A program made the translations under genes and the position numbers. Shown here one piece after another: positions 3,584 through 28,903 of a DNA stretch of 64,000 bases (its first letter is position 1; each line of letters opens with the position of its first letter). The DNA comes from Candidatus Omnitrophota bacterium (GTDB taxonomy: Bacteria; Omnitrophota; Omnitrophia; Omnitrophales; Aquincolibacteriaceae). The notes beneath the pieces are model-generated. The model saw nothing but the letters and a program-made list of their open reading frames with translations. It searched no databases and had not been told where the DNA came from. Location of the stretch: NCBI GenBank assembly GCA_903856085.1, contig CAIOAT010000016.1, positions 8,581 through 72,580 of the forward strand. The letters run 5' to 3'.

Positions 3584-3655
3584 AAGATTGGATCTCCTCC
3601 GGTTGAATGGGAATGGGGCAGAATTCTTTTCTGTCCGTTTGATTTTCATGCCGGA

Positions 3656-7474: not shown

Positions 7475-9231
7475 AAGCACCTCACCACAGATGGATTTTC
7501 AAAAAGTTCATTCCGCCGCTTAAAAAGAATCTTTTCTTGAGACTCATCCCCGCGATACTCCCCATCTGCGAGGTTGCAGAGATACTTCAGATATTTTTCA
7601 ACAGCCTCAAAAGTACCGTCTTCGGTATCGGGGAGATCGGCGCGGGAAACTTCCGGAGAAAACGTCACAAGACATTTGACATCCAGCATACGGGCCGCAA
7701 TAAACCCAAGCAATCCGATCGGCCCCGGCGTATCGATCACGATACGATCGGGATTCCATTTCTCGATCACCGAGAGCGCCCCGAGAACCGATGGAATCCT
7801 GAGCGAGAAACAACCGAAAAATCGTCTTCGAAGGAGCCCGATCATCGGCAGGTCGAGCGCCCCGGAACAACCCAGCGGCCTTCGCGGACGGGAACAGACA
7901 GCCACTCTGACAGACTGACCTCTGGCGAGGTTCCGCTTGGAGCGGAATTCTTCGAGATCCCTCAGCGACCTTACGGCATCCGAGAACCAGAGACTCCTTT
8001 CCGGGATTTTCGCCGACCTGGCCGGACATTCTTCATGGAACTCAAGGTCTTCCAACAGCCTCTTGTTATGGTTCAACAAACGGAGTGCAGCAAAGAACGG
8101 CGCACCGAGGAATGTGGTCGCAATAATGCCTTTTTTCAGCCAGCGGGCCTTTCCGGCACGCCCCTGCTTCGGCCCAAGAGCCTGGATCATGTTCCGGACG
8201 ATCTCATCGAGCAATATTGTCAGTTGTTTGTAAACAAGATCGATCCTCTGGACGGAGGAGAGGGAGCTATTCGAGGCATACCCTCGGAAAATACCAGAAA
8301 AGAATTTCCCGAGAACCTTATGAAAATTCCGTGGACTTCGTACAAGAAAAAATGAGAGGACGCGAAGTAATCCACCGTGGGATTTATTCCCCCGAAGCAT
8401 CCCGCCAATTTCGCGGGAGATGAACGCGGGGCTCTTTTTCCCAGCGAGATCACCATAAACGTGCCCCCCGATCAAGATAAAGCTCAAAGCCATGGACTTA
8501 TAATCGTGGTTACGGCCAAACCCGAATGTCTTTTTATCACGAAGAGATTGCAGAAAATCTTGCTTTGTCCTGCCAGAGGCCACCGTGAAGGTATCCCCGA
8601 TAAAAAGACCAGCATGATCATCCGACCCGCCTGTCAGTCCCTTAATCCAGCTGTCTTCCGAGAAAGGTTCGATCCGATGCTTGGCATGCAACCGTTCGAT
8701 ATCTTCGTGGGTCAAATGCTCGATGGCCTCGGTCCATTCCTGGTTATGACGGGTGGCATGAGCACCGTTCACACTTTCAAAAACATCGAAAAGCAAAATA
8801 AGCTTTTCAAGGCCGTCGCGATCAATCTTGCGATTCACGCTGAGCGTTGCGTGAGCAACCGAATAGGCGAGCCTTTCTGCACGGATATAATCCCTGAAAG
8901 CATAAATGTTCGAACGGAGCCCCAGGAGCTTCGCGAACTGTTTTTCTGTAAGATCGAAAACAAGGATGTGAACCTTGCAATGGTTCTCCGGGAAAACAAC
9001 CGAAAACTCACAACTAACAAAGGCTTCGGCGGGATACTTGTGGGCCAGACGGAGCGCTCCCTCAATAGAATTGTGGTCGGTCACCGTAACAAAATCCATT
9101 TTCTTGAATTTTGCAACGCGATAAATATGCTCGAGCTCCGTATAGGATTCACGGACCCCGAGCGCTTTCAACGTCCACTCATCTCCATCCAGAGAATACT
9201 TCGAATGCAAATGCAGATCGGCTCTAGCCAT
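7471..9231 (-). CDS. PHP-domain metal-dependent phosphoesterase fused to the N-terminal half of a GT-B (GT4-like) fold
   Basis: PHP motifs: DLHLHSKYSLDG, VTDHNSIEG, GGSDDHAG. The C-terminal ~170 aa resemble a GT4 N-domain (VRVAVCS..., PDRIVIDTPGPIGLLGFIAARML) with no C-half. ATG 9231 has SD GGAAAGGAA. The track start at 9255 is a TTG. Confidence 0.7.
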   Translation of the reverse strand: MARADLHLHSKYSLDGDEWTLKALGVRESYTELEHIYRVAKFKKMDFVTVTDHNSIEGALRLAHKYPAEAFVSCEFSVVFPENHCKVHILVFDLTEKQFAKLLGLRSNIYAFRDYIRAERLAYSVAHATLSVNRKIDRDGLEKLILLFDVFESVNGAHATRHNQEWTEAIEHLTHEDIERLHAKHRIEPFSEDSWIKGLTGGSDDHAGLFIGDTFTVASGRTKQDFLQSLRDKKTFGFGRNHDYKSMALSFILIGGHVYGDLAGKKSPAFISREIGGMLRGNKSHGGLLRVLSFFLVRSPRNFHKVLGKFFSGIFRGYASNSSLSSVQRIDLVYKQLTILLDEIVRNMIQALGPKQGRAGKARWLKKGIIATTFLGAPFFAALRLLNHNKRLLEDLEFHEECPARSAKIPERSLWFSDAVRSLRDLEEFRSKRNLARGQSVRVAVCSRPRRPLGCSGALDLPMIGLLRRRFFGCFSLRIPSVLGALSVIEKWNPDRIVIDTPGPIGLLGFIAARMLDVKCLVTFSPEVSRADLPDTEDGTFEAVEKYLKYLCNLADGEYRGDESQEKILFKRRNELFENPSVVRCL

Positions 9232-13038: not shown

Positions 13039-14031
13039 CTACTTTTTGGCCGCTTTAAAAACTTCATGGGCCATTTTGGCGGCTCCTAAAATAACCGCAT
13101 TATCCTTCAGTTTGGACGGGACGATTTTCACCACTTTGGCGAGGGGCTTAAGCGCGTAAGCTTCCATCTCACGTCTGACCTCAGGAAGAATGATCTTTCC
13201 CATCGCCTCCATCATTCCTCCTCCCAAGAGGATCAATTCCGGATTCAAAATGTTCACCACATTCGCTAGCGCAACCCCGAGCCACCGGGAACGGCTCCGG
13301 ATCAGCTCCTCTAACGCGATATCCCCCGCTTTGATAGCGCGGGACAAAGCACCGCTGCGGATTTTTTTTACGTTATAACCGATCTCTTCGAGAAGATGCG
13401 GGCACTTCTGCCGCAGCAAGAGGAACCCCGCCTCCGATGCAATAGCATTCCTGCCGACCAAAGCTCCGACTTTTTGGCGCGACGTTTCAAAATCAGAAAA
13501 AGAAGGAAGTGACAGAAATGTCTGGCCGATCTCACCAGCTCCTCCAGAAGCGCCACGGTAAAGATGTCCGTTGATGATGAGCGCCCCGCCGATACCCGTT
13601 CCTAGGAAAACCCCCACGACTTCCCGATAACCCCGCGCTGCGCCGAATTGCTGTTCTCCGAAAAGCCCCGCATTGGCATCGTTTTCAATAAAGACCGGTG
13701 TTTTCAGCTTCGCTTTCAGTTTTTCAGCAAGTGAATAATTCTTAAAAAAAGATACGTTGGAGGAGACTTTGACGATCCCTTTATAGATATCAATGATTCC
13801 AGGACAACCCACACCGATGGTTACAAGATCACTCAGGTCCGACCCGGTTTCTTCCAGAACTTCCTCGATCCCGTCAATGAGCTTGTTGAAAAAGAACCTC
13901 TCGCCGCGATTACCGTCCATCTCAAGTTTGACGGTCTTTTTTAAACTAAATTTCCTGTCAAAAAGACCTATCAGAATCTTGGTCCCGCCCAGATCGATGC
14001 CAAGGATGAACTTCTTTTTCTTGCCCGCCAT
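13039..14031 (-). CDS. ROK-family sugar kinase lacking the zinc CxCGxxGC motif (candidate glucokinase, possibly polyphosphate-dependent)
   Basis: Motifs GIDLGGTKILIG, ENDANAGLFGE and GTGIGGALIING. The only cysteines are in GVGCPG and RQKCPH, so the usual ROK zinc motif is absent. SD GGGGAGAG precedes ATG 14031. The track start at 14061 falls inside the predicted -10. Confidence 0.75.
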   Translation of the reverse strand: MAGKKKKFILGIDLGGTKILIGLFDRKFSLKKTVKLEMDGNRGERFFFNKLIDGIEEVLEETGSDLSDLVTIGVGCPGIIDIYKGIVKVSSNVSFFKNYSLAEKLKAKLKTPVFIENDANAGLFGEQQFGAARGYREVVGVFLGTGIGGALIINGHLYRGASGGAGEIGQTFLSLPSFSDFETSRQKVGALVGRNAIASEAGFLLLRQKCPHLLEEIGYNVKKIRSGALSRAIKAGDIALEELIRSRSRWLGVALANVVNILNPELILLGGGMMEAMGKIILPEVRREMEAYALKPLAKVVKIVPSKLKDNAVILGAAKMAHEVFKAAKK

Positions 14032-14059
14032 AGACTCTCCCCTTTCAAAATTGATTTCC

Positions 14060-14103
14060 ATTATAATGGCTCAGGGAAGTTTTTATGTAAAGCATTTGTA
14101 AAG
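14060..14103 (-). promoter_or_regulatory. Pho-box-like repeat plus consensus -10 for the ROK-ppx-ppk1 operon
   Basis: Top strand has TGTAAAG (14086-14092) and TGTAAAG (14097-14103), exactly 11 bp apart. On the gene strand this reads CTTTACA-AATG-CTTTACA. TATAAT (14065-14060) lies 20 nt downstream, and ATG 14031 follows about 29 nt later. Confidence 0.6.
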
Positions 14104-14279: not shown

Positions 14280-17200
14280 TTATGCCGCTACTTTAACAGC
14301 CTTTGCATTTCTCCAGGAAGCAGCAAGGAACTCTGTGACAAGCATCAAGGCATCTTTCATGCCCCAAAGATCCCGTTTTCTTCCTAGCTCAAAAAGTTGC
14401 CGACTTGTGACAAGATACCAGAGAAGAGAAAAAAGAACCTCCGGGTCAGAGCTCTTCAACTCCTTATCGTAATAAACAAGATTCCCAACGCAACTCTTCA
14501 CCTTTTGGACTTCGCGGCGATCGATTCCGACATAAGCATAATCCAAGCGTTGATATTGAGGTCCGGTGACTAAGGGACGCAGGAATTTCAAAATGGAAGC
14601 ACTAATGCTATCAGATATCTCTACTAGCTGAAAATGTCCGGTAGGAAGCTCCATTTTCTTTATCTTTTGTTCGATTGCCTCTTTCCCGGGAAATCGACTC
14701 CTCTCGAACAGGATAATGACACGGAACGGCAGCCGCGAAAGCAGCAAAAGATGCTCATCGCGAATTCCGATCCTCGCGTCCAGGAAAAGGGTGTTCAAGG
14801 CATTGGCCCGCTGCGGAAGAGCGCGGAACATTCCCATTCCTTTTTGGAAGGCTAAAAAATCGTCCCCTGATAGCGCTAAAAGCTCCTTCAGATCCGGTCC
14901 TGTGCTTTCTGAAAGAAAACTCGCGTCACCCAAAAGAGATTTTAAGCGCGGTAAAAGTTTTACATCCTCCGGTCCTAGGATCCATTCCGTGATCTTGATG
15001 GCAACCAGAAGACGGACTTTCTCCGAAACAACCGGCGTCACGTCTTCTTGCAAGGAAATCTCACGCGTAACCTCTTTGGGATTGAGTTCTAACGCTGGGG
15101 GTTTTTCGGAAGTTCTGTCTTCTCTCAATTCGGAACGCAGCACCCCACCAGGGCCCACAGCAGCCAACGCGGTTGCAATCGCCGAAAAGTGCGTCGTTAG
15201 AATCTTGTAAGTACGCGGCGTAAAGACACCTCGTTTTTCACGCAACATCGTAGAAACATCCTCGGGGGAGAGGGCCACGATCTCAACGGCATCATCTCCC
15301 GGTCTAAATTCTTTCCAATTGAACTCTCCATTGAGCGAAAAATGAAACAACTTTACATCCTCTTTTCTTGTGGTGGGAACTTGCCTTCGCCCCTCATGAT
15401 GAACTTCATAGGAAAGAGGAGGGAGCTCCCGAACTGGTAATGAGGTTAAGGCCGCGGGAAGAGGGCGGCCATCACGGAGTTCTTCAAGGAACCCCCTCTG
15501 GATTGCGGCTTCCGGACTTTCTCCGGGCTCCAGATGCTCAAAAACGGGAAGATCCAATAGACCCGGATTACTGGAAGTTAAATTACTGCGCCGCTGAAAA
15601 ACAACTTTTCCATCCTTGGTCACAAATGCGGCAACCTTTAAGGCCGCCAGACCTCTTGCATGCCCCTGTTTTCTTGGCAAGTGTACGATTTGATCGCCTC
15701 GCGTATCACGAAACATAAAAATCTGCCGATCCGCGAGCAATGAACCTTCCCCCTCCAATCGCTCGACGGCTGTACGGTTCGCCAGCTCCGGAAAAGATAC
15801 CTCGAGGCGCTTCATCCGCTCCAAAATCCCAGCCCGATTGCTCCCAGATATAAAAAAATGATCGGAAGGCGCCGGAACAAAAGCCTCCACTTCAGGAGGC
15901 TTCTGCGCAGTCGCACGAAAGGTCTCCCACAGTTTTTTCCCCATCGTGCTATAAATCTTCGCATATGGATTGGCGGCATCTTGTCCATCCGAAAACGTTT
16001 TTTGATTATGAGCGAGCCTCTGAAGATTAGGCGACACCGAAGTATTCCCTCGAAGCTGAAGATCGAACTCAGCAACCACTCTCGCAAAATCCTCTACGAG
16101 ATCCACCACAAAAGCTCCATATTTTGAGATCAAGCTTTCTGTTTTTTTACGAAATACGTCTATCAATCCTTCCATCTGTTGACGTTCCTCCTCCGTCCTT
16201 GAAACAAGAGCCATGGGCCCTTTGGGAACTGCAAATTGAGGCGTGATCGCATTATCCAATGTCAGACCGGTCCCGAACAAATGCCCATACTGACCTAAGG
16301 CACCTTTCAATTCTTCTGGGCGACGAACCACATGCTCCACATCATGCCTCGGAGAACCGTTACGCCCCAACAACACGGGATGCCGATCTGTTTCAACTTC
16401 TTCCAGAGAAGCAAGCCGTGCGTCAATAACGATCTGACTTCCCTGGTTGTTATAGCTGATCACATTCGAGCTCAGGTCGCCTCCAGGGAAAATGATCTCT
16501 CCATGCTTCACGCCTTGCTCCCTGAAGTCGCCTGCCATCCGCAAAGCTTCGGCAAGATTCATCTTAAAGACCGCCATAGCAACCGCCAAAGGAATACCTG
16601 GCTGCGGGAACCAATAGATCTGTAATTTTTTACCCAACGACTCCGCCAGATCGCGAGCGGCAAAAAATTGTCCGGCATTCCCCGGGAAAAGGCCGTCGGA
16701 TTCCGCTACTTTGAAACGGAAATGTTTCAGAACATGATCCTGCGCTACCATTGTTTCAAAAAAATTCCGATTCTCTCCGTTTTTAGGCGGGAGCAAAATG
16801 ATCACCTCGACGTCCTCCCTCAAATTTTCATCCAAAAGCGCCCGGCTCATCTTTGCCATCATAAGATTTTCTCCGGCGACATCGTCCATCTGGGAAAGGG
16901 CAACTTCCCTCCTGGGTTCTGAGGCCGGTCGTGACATTTCATATTGTTTGTTTCTCATACGTTTCGCGGACGCCCGTAAGGATTGGATCTCACGTTTGAA
17001 AGTCCCGTAACCATTTCCACTAAGATTCCTCAACATCGGCCCCACATGCCTCCAAACTGAGAAAAGGGTCCACAAAACACCAAAGATTGTCGGAACTGTA
17101 ATCAACAACTGGTGCAAACCAAATATAAGGTTCAGGATGGGTACAATAAAAAGAATCGCCACTCCGGCCACCGCCAATGCCCGGCCAAGCCATCGTCCAT

Positions 17201-20200
17201 AAAAATGGTCTAGCTTGTTTCCTTCCAGCTCATCAAGTTCGGCTGTGGGATGGAACGCTTTATGGAGTCCTGCTTTTGCCACGCGCATGGCCTCACGTTC
17301 ATTTTCAAATCCGGATATTCCCAGTTTTTGCATATTGGCCGTCACGCGTCTAAAGCTGTTCAGCGTCACCCACCGATTGATCGCCACCATCAGCGTCACC
17401 CCGAGGCAAAGACGCCATATGGAAAAGGTCCAGAGAACCTTCCGATTGTGCAGGATCTTCTGCCAATCCGAGAACTTCATTCCGTCTTGAAGCAATAACT
17501 TGGGAGGATAAAGATCGATTACCTGGGAAAGGGCAATGAGCCGATTCGACAGATTGAATCCTTCATTAAAATTCTCTGCAAAATCGGCTGATTTTTCAAG
17601 AAACCTCAAAACCTCCTGCTCTTCGATATCATTCCCAGTCCCCCGAGTCGCCTGAAATTGACGGGAAGCCGTCTGAGCGGTCAGGATCGATAAGCGGGCC
17701 AAAATCCCACGGATCTTGACCAGAGAATGCGTGTCGGGTTTCCACATTTCAGAAAGGTCCTCAAAATGTTCCCGGGAAAATCTAAGCAGCGGATGCTGCG
17801 CCAACTCGCTGGCCTTTGTGGTGATCATATCCCTTTCGCCCGAACCCAAGTGCTCATTTTCTAAAAGAAGTCGAGTCCAAGCCTGAAGCGGCTCAACGAT
17901 TTCCTGGAACACCCGCATATCCACGTCATCACCGCGGACCGCTCTTTGTTTATTAGCGTTTCTTTTTAAACGCATCCCGATTTTTCCCGCCTCGTCAAAG
18001 AGAATCTCTAGAGATTCCACGGAATCTCTCCGGAAAAACTTCTCATGCCCTCTTTTTTTCATCAATGCGAAAAAAAGTTTTGGAAGATTCCAGACAAGTA
18101 GAACCAAAGCAAGAACCGGGAAAAAACGCCAACTGATGTAACGAGCCCCAAAAGGGTTCATGAAATACCTCAAGAGAGCCGCTCGCTGCGTGGGATTTTG
18201 TTCTTCCCTTACTAGCTCCAAAAGTCCCAGAACCCCGATCTTTTGTCCGGGATGCATTTGAAATTGTTCCTGAACGGATGCGGGAATCGAATCTATTAAG
18301 CGAAGAGGTGGCGACTTTCTTTCGACAAGATCGCCTTTCTTCTTCGCCCAGGCTGAGGCTTTGGCGGACCCATCGAAAGCAATATCCGCAACACTACCCT
18401 CGCCAAGAATTCCCTCCGTATCGTCGCTGCGGATCACAACTCCCTCCCGTTCACCCAAAAGCCATTGGCTGCTGTTCGCGAGAGGGATCACTGCATACAC
18501 TGTCCCCATCAAAACGCCGCGGGATGTCACGACAGAGACTTTATCTCCTGTTTTAACGCTTCCCGTTTCGACAGGGAGCAGAAAAGGATCCTCATTGGAA
18601 AGACGGCCTGTCCATTCTGCAGAACGGGGGTCAACGCTCGTTCCCAAAAAAACCTCTTTGTTTACAATGCCGGCTTTCGTCACCTGCCCCGCCGCCAACG
18701 TTTGTCCATCTAAAGCAGTAACGCCCAGAACACGACCCCCCACGGGAGCTTTGAGCAGGATGGGCAATCCGCTCCGCTGGATCCCTGCAACGGCCCGCTG
18801 AGCTCTTTTTTCATAGTCCTGGAGAGAGCTTTCGGGAAGAGTCCTAAAGTCCTGGTTCGCCTTACGCATTGTCCGTGCAAGAGTCTCAAGCTGTCTGGCA
18901 ATCTTGAGCTGCCCACCTTGCCCCACAGGGATCCATTCCCCCAAGGAGTCCCCGGCCTTAACCGTTTGTCCATCCCGAACTGTAGCTCGAAAAATTCCGG
19001 CGTCGATCCCGGGAACGGGAGGAACACCGACCGGGATGAACTGTGAAGATGGAATAGTGGTGTGAAATCCGGCATTGTGATGCAATCCTAACGATTCGAC
19101 GCTCGGAGTATTATCTTTTATCAGCTTAATATCATATGCACAACTCGCCCCATGGGCCGGAAGAGATGTGGAAGATGGGAAGCTGAAATGAACTGTTAAA
19201 ATAAATTCGCCGTCCACTCCTTTCGCAAGGTCAAAATGACTTGCTTCCCAATCCAACACATTCACGGAATGCCCATTGACGGAAAGTTCGATATCATCGG
19301 CTCCGGAATATCCCGGAGGAAGAGCAATCTTTATGACCCCCTCATCCAGAGGAACGATCCCCACGGCATAACTACCAGCCGTTGCCGGCCCCTGATCCAG
19401 TGTTTGAACGATTGCCGGGCGGGGCGAAACCAGGATGTCGGCTTCTGCTTCCGCCTTCAGTTGAGCGAGCTCCAGTTGATGTTCGATCCTCTCAAATTGA
19501 TATTGAAATATTGTGTCCCGGTCGAGAGTCCCCGCATCTTTTTCTCCTCTGGCCACCAACCCGCCAAGTTCTCGGATCCTATCTTCCAGAAATTGAGTCC
19601 TGTTATCGCGTTCTGTATCCTCTCCTCTCGCAAGCAGGTCGCCTTTTTTGACAACATCTCCAGGTTTAACGGCATAAGTCATCTTATCTGCCGTCAATGG
19701 GGCTTTGAGCATGACCGCACCGGGAGGATTCACGATTGCTTGTCCTTTGCCTGTATACAAGACAGTTGCTGTGTTTGCGACAGAGTGTTGCTCTTCAAAC
19801 ACTGGTTTGACCTCTGTCCTATCAGAAACAAGGGAGGCTGATGCGACGGAAGACGGCTCTTTCACGGAAGCCTCCTCGTTCGTGACATTCAAAGCATTGG
19901 CAGTCCCGGCTGGGCTTTGAAATGGTATCCCGGAAAAATCTTTCTTCGTGAGTTTCTCCTTTGCGCCTGACGAAGTCATTACCTGTTCTCCTTGAGAAAC
20001 CGCATCGGCCAAGGTTTCGCGCCCATCCACGTTGCCTACACCAAGAATTTCGATGACGGAACTATCCGGAGAGACCGATTGGGGGTTGGATGTCGCATGA
20101 TCGGCTTCAGAAATTTTTGGGCTCTCCGCGGTGGTTGGAAGTGCGGAAGATGGCCCATCCGCAGAAACCCTGTCGGAGAGGACCGATGATGCCGCTGCAA

Positions 20201-23200
20201 CCGGAGAAATATACGCTCTCGATACTTTTGAAGAATGCCCGTTCTCTGGAACGGAAGACGCTCCCTCCAAAGAAACAATTCGGAAATAGCCTTGGTGTTG
20301 GGGCACCACCACGAATGTTGCTTCATAAGGATTCTTGGTTTCCTTGCGTAATGTCCAGATCCCCTTTCTTTCCGTTTTAAGAAATTTCGCACCCTGCAGG
20401 TCTTTTCCTAAAAAAGTCACTGTAGAGGAGGGAACGCCCCGCTGCATTAAAAGCTGCGCTCCTTTCATGTTTTCGGTGATCATTTGTTTGCCCACCAATT
20501 TCTGAATCGCCAATTCATTGGTTTGAGCCAAGGCTGACGAAGCCATGAGAAAAGCCCCCAGCAAAAATCCTCCCATTATTTTTAACAAGAAATGGATTCC
20601 CAGCTTTCGGCGAACTTCTGAACGCTGTGGTGCAATTCCTAGCCCGAAGAAATTTGCCCCGGTGATAACATTCAAAGGTTCTACCCACGTTTCGGATGCG
20701 CGCAGATCTGTAAAACCCTTCGTAGTCCATACTTTTTCGGATACAACTTGAGCATTCAACCAATCTCTTAGTTCGTCCGGGATAGTTTTTGATCCCACCA
20801 GTCTCCACGAGAAAACCTTCCGGGAAAAACCTAAGACGATTTGGATATCAGCAATGGGTGGGGCGTTTTGATTCGTCTTCACGTGAAATAGGGTGCCATT
20901 TATGCCAAGCTTGTGCCCTCGTCTTAAAAATCCCTGCAATTCTGGAGACATCTCCAAAACAATTTTGCCAAGATCAACCCTGTAAACCAACCCCGCAACC
21001 TTTGTCTCTGGCCCAAAAGCTTCAATGTGCTTCGCCGAAAGAGAGGCTGCGCTCCGCATTTCGAATCTTGTCACACCCTTCTTGAAAGACCGATAAGCCT
21101 GCATCAAAAGGCCTGCGGCGATTGCTGACGCTTCCTCTTTTTCTTCAGCCCTTAGCTTTGATTCCCGCGTGTTCAATTCGATATATTCACGAATTCGAAC
21201 GTTAAGTCCAGATAGCGCAGAGGAGGTAAAATTCATCTCGAAAGATTCGATCGCTTTAGCGGCTAGCGCGTAAGGAACCAAGGTATCCGGCAGATCCTTG
21301 GCCTGTCCAAGATCGTTTCTAACCGATTCCAAATCGGCAAAAGTAACCCCGCCATTCCGTTCTTTTCCATAAATGAGTCCCCACGCAAGCGCCCAAGCCG
21401 CCATCGCCTGCTCAGCAGGGATTCGAATGGCCCCCTTAGCCGACGTCATAAGCTCGAGTGACACGGCGAGCATAGACGTCGGGATCATTGCATCCGCATC
21501 ATCCAACAACCCGCCATCGATCAAGCTCACGATCGCATGATGGGCAAGAGCACGCACGGTTCCGCAATCACTGAGATTAAGTTGCAAAAGCACTTCTGCA
21601 CGCTTCAAAGCTTCCCCAAGGATTTCCTTATTCATAACGGGATCAAGATAATTTGAACGCGCCTCCGAACGAACGACGATTTGCGCTTTCACCGATCCCG
21701 GTTCAGAACGGCCAGACGCTGCCTTTTCGCGAGAAAACCGATGGCGAGAGAGTTTCGAATCAACATTGGAACGCCGAAAGGCCTCTGAAATCAAAACACC
21801 CAGATGAATTTTTTTAATCATTTTCAAAGCCACCCAGGAAAAGGCAATATCCCCCGTAAGGATGACGAGCTCTGAAAGGTAGGGGCTTACAAGCTTGTTG
21901 ATAATCATCGCCATCCCCTCAACAGGAAGGAACCATAACAACAATTGACGGCGACTCTCCTTAAAAGATCCGTGGCTTTTGAAGAGTCGTAGAGATTCGA
22001 AGTTATTTTCAGGATAGATGTTTGTATAATATTTCCAGAGCATAAGTGGATAAAAAATATAAAAATTGATCAAAGCATCCCCCATGGTTTTAAGGACGAT
22101 CTCAGACCACACATCAAGCCATGGGGAAAGATTTAATTTCCCGATTAAGGCATAATAAACGGTAAAAAATAAAGCGAACAAGCTAGCTGGAGCTGCGGCT
22201 TTCCTGGAGTCTTTCCAGAATGTTTTCATGAACACTCCTCGAAAGCCATGGCGAAGATAATCCTGCATCCAGACACAATATGCCGCAATCATGCCAGCCC
22301 AGGCGATACTCACGCCAAGTGAAAGAACTAAAGAATGCCATGACGCGTTCTGAAGATGCGGTTTAAGGATAAACGCCAGCCCCAGAGTGGCGGCTGAAAA
22401 TCCAGCTGTCCCCATCGCGGCAGGTGTGATTTGTTTGAGATGAGCGAGTTTGGATCTCTGGTTCCTTATTTCGGACCGGCCGAGCAAGACTTGGGGCAAT
22501 CCCTTTACGTCCCGAGTAAGCACTTGCAGCTCTTTGGCTGCCAATGTGGCCGCCTTGCGAGAGAATAGGATTTGGATCTGATTACTGGGGATCTTTAAAG
22601 CGTCCACAATAAGCCGGTCCTCGGTAACGCCAGCCCCACGAGCCTTTTTCAGATAGCCATCAATCCTTGCATTCTCGGCCTCCGCAATCCGTATCGTCTC
22701 ATTTTCAGCCACAATCGTTTGAAGAAGACCTGCAATCTTCTCTTCGATTTTGTCATGAACTGTCAAGAGCTCGGCTTCCGCTACACGAGTCTCCAGAAGA
22801 GCTATTTCCCGATTGGCTCGCTCAGCGCCCCCGAAAGTCACCTTCCCGCCGAGACCTACGGCCTGCTGATCCTCCGTGCGTTGTTTTGCCTCCGGAACAA
22901 CTCTTGTATTGAACACATCCGGAACTTTTGTCCCATAGGAATCGAAATAGTTGAATCCCTTAAGACCGATCGAGTAACCGTTCTCTCTTGCAGCCAATCT
23001 CGCGGCCGTTGCGGCAGTCAAACGGGCCTCATAAGCCAACGCAAGTTCACGGTTTGCCGGAAGTTTGACGCCTTCTTTGGAGGTTGCTTTAAGACCAAGC
23101 GCTATTCGTTGATCGGTTGTGATCGTCCACCCTTCCGGAAATCGCACATAATTCAAGGCATTGGAAAAAGTCGCACATCCTAAGATGTTTTGGCCATAGA

Positions 23201-25985
23201 GTGTCCTCAAAGGCAATGCCGCCTTCTCCAACTTGGAACGATGCTCATTAAGACGTAAAAGCCACTCCGCCTTAAGATCTCCGATCGCCTGGCGTTTTGC
23301 GGCTGTTGACTGCGAGTTCTTGCCGGCGACTTCGCTAGCATGATCGATCGCCTCAAGGGCTGCTTCAATAATTGGGCCTTGTGATTCAAGCGTTTTCATT
23401 TCGTAGGCGGCCCCCAAGAAATCGAGGTATCGTTCACCCGCCACCTGCTGAAGTTCCAGTCCGGCTGTTTCAACCATCTGCTGCGCCAGTTCTCGCGCCA
23501 GGATATCCTGACCTTTCCAGTATTTGCTAATCTCCGCTGCAAGGGATAACACCGCACTGGCCGCCGAATCCAAACCGATCCCCGTTAATTGTATCTGCCC
23601 AAGATTCGGCAAAGTTCCTTCGACGCCAAGCCCAAGCACCGGTTTCCCATCTGCGAGACCTAGGGTAGGCATGAGAGAAATGCTCCCGGACAAACTTCTT
23701 TTTTTGGATTCCCGGATACTCACCTCAAAACGGTGTCTCAGAATGACCGGATCGCGAGTAACCAATGCTTCAGCCAGGGAGCTTTCATTCACCAGAATCG
23801 GACCGGACAGAGAAATTTCTTTTTGCGGCAAAATGTACTGACGATCCGATTCGATCTGTTGTCTCGCATGGTCACGGCCCAAATTCGCACAACCGCTGAG
23901 AATGCCTGCCATTACAACCCAAAGAACCGCCTTCATGAACGAGGAGGGCTTCCATCGGATCTCGGCGCGCGAGAACAAATTGTTTTTTCCCTGGATCGCG
24001 TCGGGGAGCAATGCCAAAAGTCCCTTCTCCGCCCCGGGAGATAGCAAGGGAGTCGGATCTAAAATGAATCCGACATGGGTATTCATTCTCTGAAATAAGA
24101 AGCTCAAAACGTGTTGCTCTAATGCTTGACGAACTTCATGCATCCCTTTGTAAAATTTCTCCGGAATGGCTGCGAATATCCGTTGTCCCTCCCCATCCAT
24201 GAATGCCGACTTTCCCGTCTGGGATCTTTGGGCCAACACGCTGTGTTCTCCCTCGGAAACATCGACCACCGCCACTTGATGTTTTTTAAGTGATCTTTCG
24301 ATCTGTCCCATAGCCGCTTCAAAATGGTCAAATGCTGGCTCTCCGACCATCTGCCTCGCCTCGGAGTGTTCCATCACGGGGAGCTGCGCGGGAGCGATCG
24401 TAGACGTCCCGGGATACCGCCCCATCAAGAGATCACTATAGGGAAGCATCTTTTCTTCCGGGTTGAAATACGGCGTCACAAGATTGAACGGTATCCCAAG
24501 CGCTTCTGTTCGCCTGAGTAGTCCTTCCTTATGGTAGCCTCCGGCAACAATCACAATGTTTCTGGTTTTATTCCCCTGTCCATTCAAAAAAAGAGGATCT
24601 TGAATCCTTTTTTTGATGATATCAAAAAAAACATCTTCGCGAGCTTCTGCCTGAGCATAAAAATCCAAAACAAGGTCGACAAGGGGCGCTATCGTCTCTT
24701 CGTGAGGGAGTGATGGCTCCCGGAGAAAGCGCTTGTAAGCCTGCACCCAGTTCTTGCGAAAATGGTCGCGAAACCGGGCCACGCACTCCCTTTTAAGTTC
24801 AAGGGAAAGCGCCTGTTTCAGGAGGAAAAAATCCTGGTAAAAGGCAAGCCATCGTCCAGCTACCGGATCACTGCGACGGAGGGTCTCATACAACCTGTTC
24901 TCGAGCGTCTGGATTTCGTCAAAAAGTCTTTCGGCTATAAGTTCGCTTTCAAATACCTGCAAAGCAAGAAACTTCCGAATCATCGGATAACGTCCCCAAG
25001 AAAGCTCCCGTGCCAAAAATTTCTCCATGATGCGTTCCGCCATAACGCGAGAAGTCACGCTTCCAGTCTGAAGTGCGCGTGACCGGAAAGTTGCATTCGA
25101 AGCGGCGCTCTCGAGCCATTCGATTTCCGATCGAGAATCCGGACCAAGCACCCGTTTAAGCTGTCCGATTTCTTTCGTGACTGCGCTACAATCCGGTGCT
25201 GTTTCCGTATTCAAAACACGGAAAAACCGAACTAGCTGAGGCCAATCTTTTTGCGTCGAAAGATCCCGCCAATCGATTCCCAAATGCTTCGAAGAGCAAT
25301 CAAAAAGAAACTTCATGTACTCGCTTAAATCATTTTGGCTTTCCTGATGAGATCTCCACATTTTCAAGAAATGGAATACCTGCGGATCAATAACTTTTTT
25401 GATATCTTGAATTAATGATGCCTCCACCTGATCAAGAAACTCTCGAATCTCACCATGGTTGCGCATAACGGCCCGGTAAGTTTCGAGGTTCTTTCGGTAA
25501 AGCCCTGCCTCCTCAATCCCGTACACGCGTATGCCGGAGTGATTTGCAAAGAATTGAGTGGCGCCATTAACGAATCCCGCTTGGAAAAGGCTTCCCAAAA
25601 AGATCCTGTTCTTTTCATCATCCTGGAAAGGCTTCAGAGCCTCGGGAGACAGAGGGCCTGATGCACCTTCAATAAAAAGCATATCGAGTTTCTTTTGCTC
25701 TAGAAGGGACTCTAGTATCTTCGTAATATTCTTTTGAGCCTCTTCCGAAGCATGCGCATCTTGGATATGGTAGAAACTGAAAGGCACGGACCTTTCCGGG
25801 GGCGGGGACTTTTCAAGGCTTCCTACTTTGGGGGATAAAAAAACGGGGGCTTCGGCAACAGCGCCGGTATAAAAATATGCCGTCACAGCACGCACTTCTT
25901 GGGAAGGAAAAATGGTTTCAAAAACAAAAATGGCCACAACAGCAAATGCTACGATCCGGATCAATTTGCTTTTCTTGGCTTTCAT
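14280..25985 (-). CDS. Giant multi-module envelope protein or polyprotein (3,901 aa from ATG 25985; the frame is open from TTG 26015 = 3,911 aa)
   Basis: A single uninterrupted frame of 11.7 kb. The N-terminus is MKAKKSKLIRIVAFAVVAIFVFETIFPSQEVRA (signal anchor). The modules are listed as separate features below. Confidence 0.8.
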   Translation of the reverse strand: MKAKKSKLIRIVAFAVVAIFVFETIFPSQEVRAVTAYFYTGAVAEAPVFLSPKVGSLEKSPPPERSVPFSFYHIQDAHASEEAQKNITKILESLLEQKKLDMLFIEGASGPLSPEALKPFQDDEKNRIFLGSLFQAGFVNGATQFFANHSGIRVYGIEEAGLYRKNLETYRAVMRNHGEIREFLDQVEASLIQDIKKVIDPQVFHFLKMWRSHQESQNDLSEYMKFLFDCSSKHLGIDWRDLSTQKDWPQLVRFFRVLNTETAPDCSAVTKEIGQLKRVLGPDSRSEIEWLESAASNATFRSRALQTGSVTSRVMAERIMEKFLARELSWGRYPMIRKFLALQVFESELIAERLFDEIQTLENRLYETLRRSDPVAGRWLAFYQDFFLLKQALSLELKRECVARFRDHFRKNWVQAYKRFLREPSLPHEETIAPLVDLVLDFYAQAEAREDVFFDIIKKRIQDPLFLNGQGNKTRNIVIVAGGYHKEGLLRRTEALGIPFNLVTPYFNPEEKMLPYSDLLMGRYPGTSTIAPAQLPVMEHSEARQMVGEPAFDHFEAAMGQIERSLKKHQVAVVDVSEGEHSVLAQRSQTGKSAFMDGEGQRIFAAIPEKFYKGMHEVRQALEQHVLSFLFQRMNTHVGFILDPTPLLSPGAEKGLLALLPDAIQGKNNLFSRAEIRWKPSSFMKAVLWVVMAGILSGCANLGRDHARQQIESDRQYILPQKEISLSGPILVNESSLAEALVTRDPVILRHRFEVSIRESKKRSLSGSISLMPTLGLADGKPVLGLGVEGTLPNLGQIQLTGIGLDSAASAVLSLAAEISKYWKGQDILARELAQQMVETAGLELQQVAGERYLDFLGAAYEMKTLESQGPIIEAALEAIDHASEVAGKNSQSTAAKRQAIGDLKAEWLLRLNEHRSKLEKAALPLRTLYGQNILGCATFSNALNYVRFPEGWTITTDQRIALGLKATSKEGVKLPANRELALAYEARLTAATAARLAARENGYSIGLKGFNYFDSYGTKVPDVFNTRVVPEAKQRTEDQQAVGLGGKVTFGGAERANREIALLETRVAEAELLTVHDKIEEKIAGLLQTIVAENETIRIAEAENARIDGYLKKARGAGVTEDRLIVDALKIPSNQIQILFSRKAATLAAKELQVLTRDVKGLPQVLLGRSEIRNQRSKLAHLKQITPAAMGTAGFSAATLGLAFILKPHLQNASWHSLVLSLGVSIAWAGMIAAYCVWMQDYLRHGFRGVFMKTFWKDSRKAAAPASLFALFFTVYYALIGKLNLSPWLDVWSEIVLKTMGDALINFYIFYPLMLWKYYTNIYPENNFESLRLFKSHGSFKESRRQLLLWFLPVEGMAMIINKLVSPYLSELVILTGDIAFSWVALKMIKKIHLGVLISEAFRRSNVDSKLSRHRFSREKAASGRSEPGSVKAQIVVRSEARSNYLDPVMNKEILGEALKRAEVLLQLNLSDCGTVRALAHHAIVSLIDGGLLDDADAMIPTSMLAVSLELMTSAKGAIRIPAEQAMAAWALAWGLIYGKERNGGVTFADLESVRNDLGQAKDLPDTLVPYALAAKAIESFEMNFTSSALSGLNVRIREYIELNTRESKLRAEEKEEASAIAAGLLMQAYRSFKKGVTRFEMRSAASLSAKHIEAFGPETKVAGLVYRVDLGKIVLEMSPELQGFLRRGHKLGINGTLFHVKTNQNAPPIADIQIVLGFSRKVFSWRLVGSKTIPDELRDWLNAQVVSEKVWTTKGFTDLRASETWVEPLNVITGANFFGLGIAPQRSEVRRKLGIHFLLKIMGGFLLGAFLMASSALAQTNELAIQKLVGKQMITENMKGAQLLMQRGVPSSTVTFLGKDLQGAKFLKTERKGIWTLRKETKNPYEATFVVVPQHQGYFRIVSLEGASSVPENGHSSKVSRAYISPVAAASSVLSDRVSADGPSSALPTTAESPKISEADHATSNPQSVSPDSSVIEILGVGNVDGRETLADAVSQGEQVMTSSGAKEKLTKKDFSGIPFQSPAGTANALNVTNEEASVKEPSSVASASLVSDRTEVKPVFEEQHSVANTATVLYTGKGQAIVNPPGAVMLKAPLTADKMTYAVKPGDVVKKGDLLARGEDTERDNRTQFLEDRIRELGGLVARGEKDAGTLDRDTIFQYQFERIEHQLELAQLKAEAEADILVSPRPAIVQTLDQGPATAGSYAVGIVPLDEGVIKIALPPGYSGADDIELSVNGHSVNVLDWEASHFDLAKGVDGEFILTVHFSFPSSTSLPAHGASCAYDIKLIKDNTPSVESLGLHHNAGFHTTIPSSQFIPVGVPPVPGIDAGIFRATVRDGQTVKAGDSLGEWIPVGQGGQLKIARQLETLARTMRKANQDFRTLPESSLQDYEKRAQRAVAGIQRSGLPILLKAPVGGRVLGVTALDGQTLAAGQVTKAGIVNKEVFLGTSVDPRSAEWTGRLSNEDPFLLPVETGSVKTGDKVSVVTSRGVLMGTVYAVIPLANSSQWLLGEREGVVIRSDDTEGILGEGSVADIAFDGSAKASAWAKKKGDLVERKSPPLRLIDSIPASVQEQFQMHPGQKIGVLGLLELVREEQNPTQRAALLRYFMNPFGARYISWRFFPVLALVLLVWNLPKLFFALMKKRGHEKFFRRDSVESLEILFDEAGKIGMRLKRNANKQRAVRGDDVDMRVFQEIVEPLQAWTRLLLENEHLGSGERDMITTKASELAQHPLLRFSREHFEDLSEMWKPDTHSLVKIRGILARLSILTAQTASRQFQATRGTGNDIEEQEVLRFLEKSADFAENFNEGFNLSNRLIALSQVIDLYPPKLLLQDGMKFSDWQKILHNRKVLWTFSIWRLCLGVTLMVAINRWVTLNSFRRVTANMQKLGISGFENEREAMRVAKAGLHKAFHPTAELDELEGNKLDHFYGRWLGRALAVAGVAILFIVPILNLIFGLHQLLITVPTIFGVLWTLFSVWRHVGPMLRNLSGNGYGTFKREIQSLRASAKRMRNKQYEMSRPASEPRREVALSQMDDVAGENLMMAKMSRALLDENLREDVEVIILLPPKNGENRNFFETMVAQDHVLKHFRFKVAESDGLFPGNAGQFFAARDLAESLGKKLQIYWFPQPGIPLAVAMAVFKMNLAEALRMAGDFREQGVKHGEIIFPGGDLSSNVISYNNQGSQIVIDARLASLEEVETDRHPVLLGRNGSPRHDVEHVVRRPEELKGALGQYGHLFGTGLTLDNAITPQFAVPKGPMALVSRTEEERQQMEGLIDVFRKKTESLISKYGAFVVDLVEDFARVVAEFDLQLRGNTSVSPNLQRLAHNQKTFSDGQDAANPYAKIYSTMGKKLWETFRATAQKPPEVEAFVPAPSDHFFISGSNRAGILERMKRLEVSFPELANRTAVERLEGEGSLLADRQIFMFRDTRGDQIVHLPRKQGHARGLAALKVAAFVTKDGKVVFQRRSNLTSSNPGLLDLPVFEHLEPGESPEAAIQRGFLEELRDGRPLPAALTSLPVRELPPLSYEVHHEGRRQVPTTRKEDVKLFHFSLNGEFNWKEFRPGDDAVEIVALSPEDVSTMLREKRGVFTPRTYKILTTHFSAIATALAAVGPGGVLRSELREDRTSEKPPALELNPKEVTREISLQEDVTPVVSEKVRLLVAIKITEWILGPEDVKLLPRLKSLLGDASFLSESTGPDLKELLALSGDDFLAFQKGMGMFRALPQRANALNTLFLDARIGIRDEHLLLLSRLPFRVIILFERSRFPGKEAIEQKIKKMELPTGHFQLVEISDSISASILKFLRPLVTGPQYQRLDYAYVGIDRREVQKVKSCVGNLVYYDKELKSSDPEVLFSLLWYLVTSRQLFELGRKRDLWGMKDALMLVTEFLAASWRNAKAVKVAA
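15156..15665 (-). other. Giant ORF Nudix-hydrolase module (aa ~3451-3620) with a variant Nudix box
   Basis: LKVAAFVTKDGKVVFQRR...LDLPVFEHLEPGESPEAAIQRGFLEELR fits GX5EX7REUXEEXGU, except that RE is replaced by RG. The box is at nt 15477-15554. Confidence 0.6.
18336..19763 (-). other. Giant ORF module E (aa ~2085-2560): HlyD/membrane-fusion-protein-like periplasmic adaptor segments
   Basis: Lipoyl-like hairpin motifs YAVKPGDVVKKGDLLARGE and ATVRDGQTVKAGDSLGEW. Coiled-coil stretch FERIEHQLELAQLKAEAEA. Beta-barrel-like segments LKAPVGGRVLGVTALDGQTLAAGQ and VKTGDKVSVVTSRGVLMGTVYAVIP. Confidence 0.5.
19791..20213 (-). other. Ser/Pro/Ala-rich low-complexity linker (aa ~1935-2075)
   Basis: Sequence SPVAAASSVLSDRVSADGPSSALPTTAESPKISEADHATSNPQSVSPDSS...EPSSVASASLVS. 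Confidence 0.6.
20526..20609 (-). other. Internal Sec-type signal peptide (aa 1803-1830: RKLGIHFLLKIMGGFLLGAFLMASSALA|QT)
   Basis: A basic n-region, a hydrophobic core and an A-L-A cleavage motif, starting immediately after RSEVR. Confidence 0.55.
21672..22463 (-). other. Giant ORF module C (aa 1185-1448): roughly six-helix integral membrane module, unknown family
   Basis: Hydrophobic stretches occur near aa 1201-1217, 1226-1249, 1275-1293, 1305-1327, 1356-1376 and 1381-1400. The module is bounded by RSEIR and RSEAR. Confidence 0.5.
22479..23888 (-). other. Giant ORF module B (aa 710-1179): TolC/OEP-like outer-membrane factor
   Basis: About 470 aa, the typical OMF size, with a two-fold internal organisation. 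N-terminal block SLAEALVTRDPVILRHRFEVSIRE...MPTLGL; second half LALAYEARLTAATAARLAARENGYSIGLKG. Long Ala/Glu/Leu-rich helices are present, and a lipobox precedes it as in NodT-type OMFs. Confidence 0.5.
23889..23936 (-). other. Internal lipoprotein-type signal peptide with lipobox (aa 694-709: MKAVLWVVMAGILSG|C)
   Basis: A hydrophobic core is followed by I-L-S-G-C, which matches the L-[AS]-[GA]-C lipobox. The Cys709 codon (tgt) is at 23889-23891. The signal starts 7 residues after RAEIR. Confidence 0.6.
24456..25784 (-). other. Giant ORF module A (aa ~78-520): candidate Tiki/TraB/ChaN-superfamily fold
   Basis: FYHIQDAHASEEAQKNITKILESLLEQKKLDMLFIEGASG resembles the GExH...H...E pattern. The late block RNIVIVAGGYHKEGLLRRTEALGIPF resembles the G..H block of ChaN/TraB proteins. 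This is pattern memory only. Confidence 0.35.
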
Positions 25986-26096
25986 TTTTTGCCCTTTTCC
26001 AATGGTGGAAGACAACTCTTTAAGGTTTTATAAAAGTTTTTCCTTCTGATCTCACGGAAAGCTTAACTTCGTTGTGAAAACTCTGCATCACATCCC

Positions 26097-26439: not shown

Positions 26440-27129
26440 ATGGCAAGCGAAACGATTCTCCTCATTGAAGACGAAAAGAACATCCTTGAGCTTGTGAAAT
26501 ACAACCTCGAGCAGGAGGGTTTTCGCGTCCTCACCGCGACCAAAGGCAACGCAGGTCTTGAGACAGCGCTTAAAGAAAAACCAGCCCTTGTGCTCCTCGA
26601 CCTCATGCTCCCGGAAATCAATGGCCTCGAGATTTGCAAAACCCTAAAACAGACCGAAAAAACACGCAGGATCCCTATCATCATGCTTACGGCCAAAGGC
26701 ACCGAGTCCGATAAAGTCGTCGGCCTCGAACTCGGCGCCGATGATTACATCACCAAACCTTTCAGCCCCCGGGAACTCGTAGCTCGCATCAAAGCCGTCC
26801 TTAGACGCTCTCAGGAAAAAGCCCCGGAAGAGATCTTGAGATCCGGAACGATCGAGCTTGACGTGACAAAGCATGAGCTGCGATTAAAAGGAAAGCCCGC
26901 CGAAATTACCGCCAAAGAATTCGAACTCTTGCGCGTACTCATGAGTTCCAAGGAACGGGTCCTGACGCGCGAGGTTCTCTTATCAAAAGTTTGGGGTTAT
27001 GAGAATTCTGTGAATATCGAAACGCGGACTGTCGACATGCACGTCGGACAGCTACGAAAAAAACTTGGCAAAGAAGCGGATCGGATCGTCACGGTTAAAA
27101 GCGTCGGCTACCGTTTCGACGGAGAATAA
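26440..27129 (+). CDS. phoB: OmpR/PhoB-family response regulator (phosphate regulon regulator)
   Basis: Receiver domain (ILLIEDEKNILELV, LVLLDLMLPE, MLTAKG) plus a winged-helix C-terminus (TRTVDMHVGQLRKKL, VKSVGYRF). It is adjacent to a PhoR-like kinase and to the pst/ppk genes. Confidence 0.8.
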   Translation: MASETILLIEDEKNILELVKYNLEQEGFRVLTATKGNAGLETALKEKPALVLLDLMLPEINGLEICKTLKQTEKTRRIPIIMLTAKGTESDKVVGLELGADDYITKPFSPRELVARIKAVLRRSQEKAPEEILRSGTIELDVTKHELRLKGKPAEITAKEFELLRVLMSSKERVLTREVLLSKVWGYENSVNIETRTVDMHVGQLRKKLGKEADRIVTVKSVGYRFDGE

Positions 27130-27130
27130 G

Positions 27131-28903
27131 ATGGGCTTTCCAAAGATCGGTTTCGCCAAACGTCTCCTCGTGCTGTATGGCATTATTTTCATCCTCGTCC
27201 TGCTCGTAACCGATTGGACGCTTTCTCATTTCCTCCAAAAGCGTGACCTCCAACAGCTTCAGAGCTCTCTTTCGCGTCAGTCGACCCTGATCCGCGAGAT
27301 TGCGACTCCTCTATTAAAGGAGGCTCCCAAGCTCCAATCCAAAGTCAAAAAGCTAGCCGAGGGGACCGATCTTCGCATCACGATCATCGATCCCGAAGGC
27401 GCGATCCTTGCCGATTCCAGTGAAACCAGCGAGGCTCTCGCGAAAATGGACAATCACGCGACCCGGCCCGAGGTTGCGTCCGCACTGAGAAAAGAAACGG
27501 GCATGAGCATCCGTTACAGCATGACTGTTCAGACCAAAATGCTTTATATCGCTATCCCCATCCTGGAACACTCCCAGATCCTAGGGGTCGTTCGCACCGC
27601 GATGCCGATCACACGCGTCGATGAGATCCTGGCCTCGGTCCGCCGACCCGTGATGCTCGCAGCGGTCCTCGGCATTTTGATCGTCCTCGTTGCCGGCATT
27701 CTCTTCGGCGGTCGCCTCACCCAACGCATAGGACGCATCACCTCCGTAGCCGAACGTTATGCCCGCGAGGACTGGTCTGAAAAAATCCTGATGGACGGCC
27801 GCGACGAGCTCAAAATGCTCGCAGATACCATGAATCAAATGGCCACATCCCTGCGCTCAAGGATCGAAGACCTGGAAAGTGAGAAAGGTAAGATTTCCGT
27901 CATTTTGAGCAATATGAACGAAGGGGTGATCGCGATTAGCCGGCGCAAACAGTTTGTTATGGCAAATCCCGCAGCGGAAAAAATCTTTGGATTCACTGCC
28001 GCCCATACGCAGGAGAAAAGTCTGATCGAAATCACACGCCACCCTCAACTCGAAAGGATCGTGGACCACGCCTTCCAGGAGCAAAAAAACGCCTCCTCCG
28101 AAATCCAGATCTCCGGCAAGATAAAAAAGACACTTCTTGCAAATGTGATCGTTCTCGATGCCCACGCCCGCGATATCGGCGGCATCCTTGTTTTTCATGA
28201 CATGACGGAGCTCCGTCGACTCGAGAATATCCGGAAGGAATTCGTAGCCAATGTTTCCCACGAACTCCGCACGCCCCTCACCTCGATTAAGGGATTCATT
28301 GAAACGTTGCTGGGCGGCGCCTTAAAAGATCCCCCGACCAGCGAACGGTTCCTGAAAATTGTTTCGGAGGAGACGGATCGACTCGGAAGGCTGGTGGAAG
28401 ATATTCTGACGCTTGGCGAGATCGAACAGGGCGCGGCTCTGGTCAGGAAAGAAAAGATCGATCTTGCCTCTGAACTCCCGGCCATCCTGGAACGATTTAA
28501 GACCCAGCTCCAAGAAAAAAAGATCGCGGTCGAAAACCGCATCTCCGGGAAACCTCTCCCGCTATCTGGAGACAGGGACAAAGTCCATCAGGTCTTCGTC
28601 AATCTCATCGACAATGCGATCAAATTCAATAAGCCTGAAGGGATGATCGTCCTGTCTGCCGATCAAAGTCCGAAAGGCGTGGTGATTACCATCGAGGATA
28701 CGGGGATCGGTATTCCTGAAGAGTCCCTAGGACGGATTTTTGAGCGGTTCTTTCGTGTGGATAAAGCACGTTCAAAGGAGCTTGGAGGAACCGGATTGGG
28801 CCTAGCCATCGTTAAACACATCATGGAAGCGCATGGCGGCCACGCCACATGCCAAAGCACCCCCGGCCAGGGTTCCCGCTTTTCGGTTTTTTTTCCCGCC
28901 TGA
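27131..28903 (+). CDS. phoR: Sensor histidine kinase, PhoR-like
   Basis: Two TM helices flank a ~150-aa loop. PAS segment NMNEGVIAISRRKQFVMANPAAEKIFG, H-box FVANVSHELRTPLTSIKG, N/G boxes NLIDNAIKFN, DTGIGIP and GGTGLGLAIVKHI. ATG 27131 is separated from the phoB stop by a single nt. The track start at 27065 is rejected. Confidence 0.8.
   Translation: MGFPKIGFAKRLLVLYGIIFILVLLVTDWTLSHFLQKRDLQQLQSSLSRQSTLIREIATPLLKEAPKLQSKVKKLAEGTDLRITIIDPEGAILADSSETSEALAKMDNHATRPEVASALRKETGMSIRYSMTVQTKMLYIAIPILEHSQILGVVRTAMPITRVDEILASVRRPVMLAAVLGILIVLVAGILFGGRLTQRIGRITSVAERYAREDWSEKILMDGRDELKMLADTMNQMATSLRSRIEDLESEKGKISVILSNMNEGVIAISRRKQFVMANPAAEKIFGFTAAHTQEKSLIEITRHPQLERIVDHAFQEQKNASSEIQISGKIKKTLLANVIVLDAHARDIGGILVFHDMTELRRLENIRKEFVANVSHELRTPLTSIKGFIETLLGGALKDPPTSERFLKIVSEETDRLGRLVEDILTLGEIEQGAALVRKEKIDLASELPAILERFKTQLQEKKIAVENRISGKPLPLSGDRDKVHQVFVNLIDNAIKFNKPEGMIVLSADQSPKGVVITIEDTGIGIPEESLGRIFERFFRVDKARSKELGGTGLGLAIVKHIMEAHGGHATCQSTPGQGSRFSVFFPA

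Follow-up and report, generated by a model that had tools for sequence, protein, structure and literature searches.

A divergent Tiki/TraB/ChaN-fold module heads giant open reading frames of Omnitrophota and is a candidate for their processing protease

The stretch of DNA analysed here (the window) comprises 64,000 nucleotides, positions 8,581 to 72,580 of contig CAIOAT010000016.1 (assembly GCA_903856085.1) from a Candidatus Omnitrophota bacterium, and the features described here lie in a single minus-strand open reading frame (ORF; window 14280..26015) of 3,911 codons counted from a TTG. The head of this putative polyprotein precursor is a module (residues ~60-535, 24411..25838, as delimited in an AlphaFold2 model) which is a highly divergent form of an enzyme fold that is already known, here in a new setting. 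We have little doubt that the assignment of its fold and active site to the Tiki/TraB/ChaN/Ere superfamily is correct. That the head is both an exported hydrolase of this fold and the built-in peptidase of the precursor is the best explanation overall, and we hold it with confidence just short of even. Residues are numbered from the TTG at 26015, as in the first-pass annotation of this DNA (numbering from the ATG discussed below is lower by 10), and all window coordinates given for parts of the ORF refer to the minus strand.

The AlphaFold2 model of residues 60-560, which was built with 24 homologues, is confident [mean predicted local distance difference test (pLDDT) 85.3; predicted template modelling score (pTM) 0.81] and has the parallel β-sheet core with flanking helices of the superfamily. 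The core strands are residues 79-86, 112-115, 163-167, 485-492, and 510-515. The first three, with D86-A-H88, E116, and E168, respectively, form the N-terminal half of the α/β core (25512..25781), and an all-helical insertion of ~310 residues (170-478; 24582..25508) lies between the third and the fourth. In a structural search with this model, the seven top matches were all Tiki/TraB/ChaN/Ere proteins, namely ChaN (2g5g, score 9.3), a TraB-family protein (8bqs_DQ, 8.9), BcR136 (2qgm, 8.8), EreC (6xcq, 8.6), BcR135 (2rad, 8.4), HopBA1 (5t09, 8.2), and RRSP (5w6l, 8.1), and the C1/C2 domains of PMT (2ebf) were found at rank 11. The matched proteins are given as Tiki-superfamily structures in the paper describing RRSP (PMC6254334). 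Foldseek against the PDB ranked BcR135 first, with a non-significant E value of 0.05.

The first-pass annotation had recognised a Tiki/TraB/ChaN resemblance at 24456-25784 from two sequence blocks, and the structural matches bear it out. Both blocks, FYHIQDAHASEEAQKNITKILESLLEQKKLDMLFIEGASG (residues 81-120, 25656-25775) and RNIVIVAGGYHKEGLLRRTEALGIPF (residues 485-510, 24486-24563), lie inside that interval, the folded domain being somewhat larger, and they had been aligned rightly with the superfamily: DAH (D86-A87-H88, 25752..25760) takes the place of GExH and is the counterpart of the (G/E)xxH motif, IEG provides the Glu (E116, 25668..25670, which ends strand 2), and GGYH (G492-G493-Y494-H495, 24531..24542), which follows strand 485-492, is the second GxxH. 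The Gly/Glu position of (G/E)xxH is Gln in the head module, and H88 stands directly after strand 79-86. In an alignment of 139 representatives (pairwise identity <50%, mean identity ~28%), H88 and E116 (both 139/139) as well as G492, G493, and H495 are invariant, and R459, E168 (at least 138/139), R263, E358, and E367 are invariant or nearly so, the last three being borne by the helical insertion. G117 (137/139), G151, G166, Y173, P259, Y453, P515, and Y526 are also invariant or nearly invariant, and the D86 column holds Asp in 111, Asn in 16, and Thr in 8 of the sequences. R459 (24639..24641) belongs to an FY..A..RE helix before the second His strand; an Arg precedes the second GxxH in TraB and RRSP too, and R459 corresponds in sequence to the Arg of H-Q-R-N in E. 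coli YbaP.

In the model, strands 1, 2, and 4 lead at their C-terminal ends straight into the invariant His, Glu, and His, respectively. The set of two His, two Glu, and an Arg in RRSP and Ere likewise stands at the C-terminal ends of core strands (PMC6254334), and the conserved basic residue beside the RRSP active site is Arg-4001 (PMC6254334). Thus, the residues that the first-pass annotation expected to be conserved are indeed invariant, and its description of them as metal ligands holds for their conservation only, a metal role being an assumption and RRSP being metal-independent (PMC6254334). The superfamily assignment is supported by the predicted structure and by residue conservation, and the head domain is probably catalytically active.

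The first-pass annotation had also proposed profile searches, and these were negative except for sub-threshold matches to ChaN. Neither Pfam nor NCBIfam gave a match on the head module of the window protein, and PDB sequences searched by phmmer and hmmsearch yielded none that was significant, whether the helical insert was kept or removed. Comparison by hhalign with the E. coli YbaP (TraB/GumN) family, at full length and with the core only, gave P=0.09-0.3 against a shallow template (effective number of sequences, Neff, 2.3). Sub-threshold matches to PF04187 (ChaN, "Tiki superfamily") came from 8 of 22 core-only sequences, the best at E=0.0024, and from 1 of 25 full modules. In the core-only scan no other Pfam family was matched by more than two members, and all Pfam matches of the head family fell below the curated threshold. 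We read the head as a new family, marked by the helical insert of ~310 residues, whose strong divergence puts it beyond the reach of ordinary profile methods and for which Pfam and NCBIfam have no curated model.

When 1.84 billion cluster representatives were searched exhaustively with HMMER, 5,606 homologues of the head were found at E<=1e-3, of which 2,375 reached E<=1e-10 and 206 reached E<=1e-30. Searches through a word index, run with the module or the alignment, had returned none or only 5 proteins and missed even the cluster of the query itself; judging from the HMMER result, this null reflects a limit of the index. The module is N-terminal throughout, starting near residue 13-190 of proteins which are mostly 2,000-7,700 residues long. 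The named sources are Candidatus Omnitrophota, plus one metagenome-assembled genome of Elusimicrobia. A locus scan over one genome per GTDB species confirmed at least 557 head loci, often several per genome. The best 80 loci, which were analysed further, come mostly from Candidatus Omnitrophota/Omnitrophica, the remainder being labelled "uncultured bacterium". When the window protein was tiled against its 150 best homologues, residues 1-600 were common to 147-150 of the 150 and the sequence downstream of residue 600 to at most 6, which makes the module a universal head on variable cargo. As the head is the only segment common to the 150 proteins, no other protease is common to them.

Small two-part relatives were observed in eight loci (L009, L019, L047, L053, L056, L057, L062, and L064) as minus-strand ORFs of 714-793 residues adjoining giant genes of ~3.9 thousand residues on the opposite strand. 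They consist of the head module, then (R/L)SELRN, and then a conserved C-terminal domain of ~250 residues, which had no match anywhere in the window protein.

The recurrence of an RSExR-type pentapeptide, pointed out in the first-pass annotation, is real: the window ORF contains 5 R[SA]ExR motifs versus 0.20 expected (P=2e-6), a number reached in 0 of 20,000 shuffles, and no other window ORF of at least 150 residues contains one. A DNA-level repeat as the origin of the motifs was rejected, codon usage differing at every site. Among the 150 homologues, all of the sequences in these statistics having been chosen for the head module, RSExR occurs 358 times versus 9 expected (~40-fold) and RAExR 106 times versus 12.5 expected (8.5-fold); the control patterns RTExR, RGExR, RSDxR, RSExK, and RESxR occur at the expected frequency. 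At the x position Leu, Val, Ala, and Met predominate, and the flanks hold hardly any information beyond small residues. The median spacing is 299 residues. In homologues with at least four motifs the x residue is homogeneous within a protein, same-residue pairs making up 0.376 versus 0.183 in shuffles; P0045, for example, has nearly all RSELR, and P0083 and P0119 have nearly all RSEQR. Across the 80 loci, motif density per 1,000 residues is 1.83 downstream of the module versus 0.16 in neighbouring ORFs, with 24 of the 37 neighbour-ORF motifs belonging to giant ORFs that run off the edge of the locus, and among the complete ORFs in these loci none has two or more motifs without the module. A junction stands directly behind the head in most members, the small two-part precursors included.

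Directly after the module of the window protein lies a degenerate junction, HSEAR (residues 550-554, 24354..24368), which aligns with RSEAR in P0002 and RSELR in P0029. The five full junctions are RAEIR (residues 683-687, 23955..23969), RSEIR (1180-1184, 22464..22478), RSEAR (1449-1453, 21657..21671), RSEVR (1798-1802, 20610..20624), and RSELR (3627-3631, 15123..15137), and a candidate junction peptide is VLLGRSEIRNQR. When the protein was aligned with six giant homologues at 20-35% identity, the motif at site 1180 was found in all six (RSExR in five, RPEIR in P0001) and R[SA]ExR at site 3627 in five. The motif positions are kept while the flanks are rich in insertions and deletions. This is the pattern of a putative short linear site that selection maintains where independently evolving parts meet.

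A second motif class appears in the same family. [AG]-x-S-L-G occurs 157 times versus 26 expected, up to 17 times per protein, and 15 giant homologues with 0-1 RSExR carry [AG]xSLG in its place. No protein has three or more of both motifs, 60 being of the RSExR type and 15 of the SLG type. Carriers of [AG]xSLG include P0070, P0085, P0133, P0138, and P0147 and were also seen at loci L011, L045, L046, L051, L070, and L072. The nearest neighbour of 14 of the 15 SLG-type modules is another SLG-type module, a pattern that genome relatedness could explain, and in a neighbour-joining tree the SLG-type modules fall into about four groups.

Export signals are found both ahead of the head and within the cargo. 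The true start of the giant ORF is likely the ATG at 25985 (residue 11), which is preceded 6 nt to the 5' side by a purine-rich, Shine-Dalgarno-like AAGGG and gives a precursor of 3,901 residues (14280..25985, the TTG-extended form reaching 26015). From this start the protein reads MKAKKSK-LIRIVAFAVVAIFVFETIF..VRA/VT, that is, a basic N-terminus, then a hydrophobic stretch, with a hydropathy peak at residues 18-36. A signal-like feature is present at the N-terminus of 105 of 147 homologues too. Residues 11-43 (25887..25985) are therefore taken for a signal peptide of the Sec type or a signal anchor, and the head should be periplasmic. Directly after the first full junction, residues 688-709 (23889..23954) read as a lipoprotein-type signal peptide with a lipobox (WKPSSFMKAVLWVVMAGILSG/C). 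The lipobox of the window protein, MKAVLWVVMAGILSG/C (..AGILSG/C), is kept in P0001, P0009, and P0006. Behind RSEVR, the fourth junction, comes a signal peptide of the Sec type, RKLGIHFLLKIMGGFLLGAFLMASSALA/QT (..ASSALA/QT), motif and signal together covering residues 1798-1833 (20517-20624).

Across the 3,911-residue ORF, Pfam gave one significant match only, to a NUDIX hydrolase domain (residues 3461-3597, 15225-15635; E=1.3e-5), and it recognised no protease elsewhere in the protein. Weak matches to an outer-membrane-efflux (OEP) domain at residues 993-1114 and to a HlyD/biotin-lipoyl-like segment at residues 2116-2130, downstream of the Sec signal of the fourth junction, were also observed. 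Components of an export system that spans the envelope may be among the cargo.

Under the reading that we favour, the head would be translated first, fold, and cut the chain at the junction motifs, beginning behind itself, and the cargo pieces would be parted by R-[SA]-E-x-R in this protein and by [AG]-x-S-L-G in some genomes. At a minimum, a cut at the first junction would free the head from its cargo. The intact catalytic set, the position of the head as the only common domain, and the junction after it favour a protease role, for which the family-wide co-occurrence of head and motif makes a strong circumstantial case. The fold is known for sequence-specific endopeptidases, i.e., Tiki and RRSP, and for the putative pheromone peptidase PrgY (PMC6254334; PMC7117660). 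A crude count of transmembrane parity placed the first junction on the same predicted membrane side as the head in ~95% of cases. Taken by itself, the claim that the head domain is the enzyme cutting the junctions is in our judgment plausible, somewhat short of probable.

A number of points weigh against the head as the processing enzyme. Cleavage at the junctions is itself deduced from sequence statistics. The head fails the usual sequence test of superfamily membership (PF01963, PF04187, PF05139), and the superfamily also holds esterases and a haem-binding protein. In a longer AlphaFold2 model through the first full junction, RAEIR-683 shows no sign of docking, but at a pLDDT of about 30, which makes the model uninformative on this point; residues ~542-579 of this model, including HSEAR, are confidently helical (pLDDT 84-89). 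The topology is awkward as well. Signal peptides act as free N-termini from the cytoplasm, and those of the lipoprotein and Sec types right after junctions 1 and 4 thus point to cutting before export. With the head exported, an uncut chain would put the lipoprotein signal in the wrong orientation, which is a topological paradox. The later junctions were assigned by the same crude parity count to both membrane sides, ~50:50, and a NUDIX domain, which is normally cytoplasmic, lies inside this signal-peptide-led precursor. Finally, the motif class is uniform within a genome, and no column of the module cleanly separates the RSExR type from the SLG type. The largest frequency difference is 0.57, and the best partial column is position 454, which is acidic in 54% of RSExR-type versus 18% of SLG-type modules. 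A motif type that goes with the genome and involves no change in the module is explained no less well by a separate enzyme acting in trans.

The main alternative, a real possibility though one we would put clearly under even, is that the head is an exported Tiki-fold hydrolase with another task, for example one that trims or breaks down peptides of the envelope or of prey or takes part in the maturation or export of the cargo, and that the junctions are cut before targeting by a separate, probably cytoplasmic, genome-encoded protease acting in trans, or by co-translational events. The signals directly behind the junctions, with a lipobox kept in homologues, the junctions predicted on both membrane sides, the dependence of motif type on the genome and not on the individual polyprotein, and the lack of class-specific residues in the module all favour this explanation, and C39 or S8 peptidase domains have been proposed to process Omnitrophota giants (10.1101/2023.11.21.568195). 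What it leaves unaccounted for is that the 150 motif-bearing proteins share no other domain, that the window protein has no recognisable protease elsewhere, that head and motif co-occur very tightly, and that the junction follows directly on the head in most members, even in the small two-part precursors. The first-pass proposal that the head cuts the RSExR sites thus keeps the support of co-occurrence across the family, against which stand serious objections raised by topology and by the lack of covariation between module and site specificity.

In another explanation, the head would be an Ere-like esterase or small-molecule hydrolase, the first piece of cargo and unrelated to processing. This seems improbable to us, since the universal, N-terminal position of the head amid variable cargo and the junction adjoining it would be left unexplained. 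Marginally less probable still is a non-catalytic head, either a ChaN-type binder of haem or another cofactor or a structural anchor. The His/Glu/Arg/His set, invariant in 139 sequences at such low mean identity, has the pattern of an active enzyme, and inactive Tiki-fold proteins such as PMT C1/C2 have lost these residues (PMC6254334). A chance resemblance, i.e., a generic Rossmann-like α/β sandwich with fortuitous His and Glu residues, is very improbable.

Among known members of the superfamily, ChaN (Campylobacter jejuni Cj0177, PF04187) is a stand-alone haem-binding lipoprotein of 255 residues with 9% identity to the head; it lacks the 310-residue helical insert and lies outside any precursor, whereas the head has both the insert and the precursor. 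TraB, PrgY, GumN, and Tiki proteins (PF01963; E. coli YbaP, E. faecalis PrgY, vertebrate Tiki1/2) have G-T/S-x-H as their first motif where the head has Q-D-A-H, and no significant profile similarity was found between the head and the YbaP family. Unlike these proteins, the head has a large helical insertion and is joined in one chain to unrelated cargo encoded by kilobases of DNA behind it. RRSP (DUF5), a Tiki-fold endopeptidase inside the giant autoprocessed MARTX toxin, is the nearest functional analogy within the superfamily. In MARTX, however, a separate cysteine protease domain does the processing and RRSP cuts host Ras, whereas here the Tiki-fold head is the candidate processor and is N-terminal. 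EreA/B/C and BcR135/BcR136 are cytoplasmic stand-alone macrolide esterases with neither signal peptide nor polyprotein context.

Polyproteins with a leader or embedded protease are known from viruses (P1, HC-Pro, Lpro, and 3C) and from the gingipain precursors of Porphyromonas. The arrangement considered here is alike in outline, with one ORF, variable cargo, a short junction site, and a protease in the same chain that would free itself first. It is unlike them in that the folds and catalytic types are unrelated, cleavage is deduced here, and enzyme and sites possibly lie in different compartments.

The giant ORFs described from Omnitrophota ("Archaeovorins" and others; 10.1101/2023.11.21.568195; PMC10066038; 10.64898/2026.06.07.730766) come from the same phylum and represent the same phenomenon. 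Whether these giants are cleaved is a question raised in these papers, which do not mention the Tiki-fold head, RSExR, or [AG]xSLG. One paper on the giants notes that their N-terminal regions are generally without identifiable domains and that their cleavage points are not known, and according to the main preprint on them the missing cleavage points blocked a domain-wise analysis (10.1101/2023.11.21.568195). Our literature searches on the motif strings, Omnitrophota polyproteins, and cleavage sites found nothing relevant and no published description of the head.

The giant ORF is not an accident of assembly, since at least 14 public contigs encode exactly the same 3,901-residue product of the ATG start. 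Its neighbours are genes of ordinary bacterial types. A separate ROK-family kinase gene (13039-14061, minus strand) lies 219 nt downstream, followed by Ppx and polyphosphate kinase genes, and ROK kinases are among the domains frequent inside Omnitrophota giant proteins according to a 2026 preprint (10.64898/2026.06.07.730766). Upstream and divergent is a response regulator and histidine kinase pair (26440-28903, plus strand). The closest homologue of the giant protein, P0001, is labelled "signal transduction histidine kinase" by its Joint Genome Institute (JGI) source, probably due to its cargo domains.

Omnitrophota are noted for their giant ORFs, and it is an open question in the field whether the products work as single chains or as cut parts. 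Two handles on it are now available, a conserved and catalytically intact Tiki-fold head on thousands of giants and two mutually exclusive pentapeptide motifs, and together they make the cleavage question testable. The motifs divide the chains into protein-sized pieces (median ~300 residues) and allow their segmentation for structure prediction. The head also adds a large and very divergent branch to the superfamily of the Wnt-inactivating Tiki, the pheromone-controlling PrgY, and the Ras-cleaving RRSP. We suggest, tentatively and as a minority expectation, that a large share of the envelope, secretion, and accessory machinery of Omnitrophota is made as polyproteins, each working like an operon in one ORF and headed by a dedicated Tiki-fold leader protease that cuts at a lineage-specific pentapeptide (RSExR or [AG]xSLG). 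If true, bacteria would have here a counterpart to the polyprotein expression of viruses, and the motifs would provide the first cleavage map for the giant proteins of Omnitrophota.

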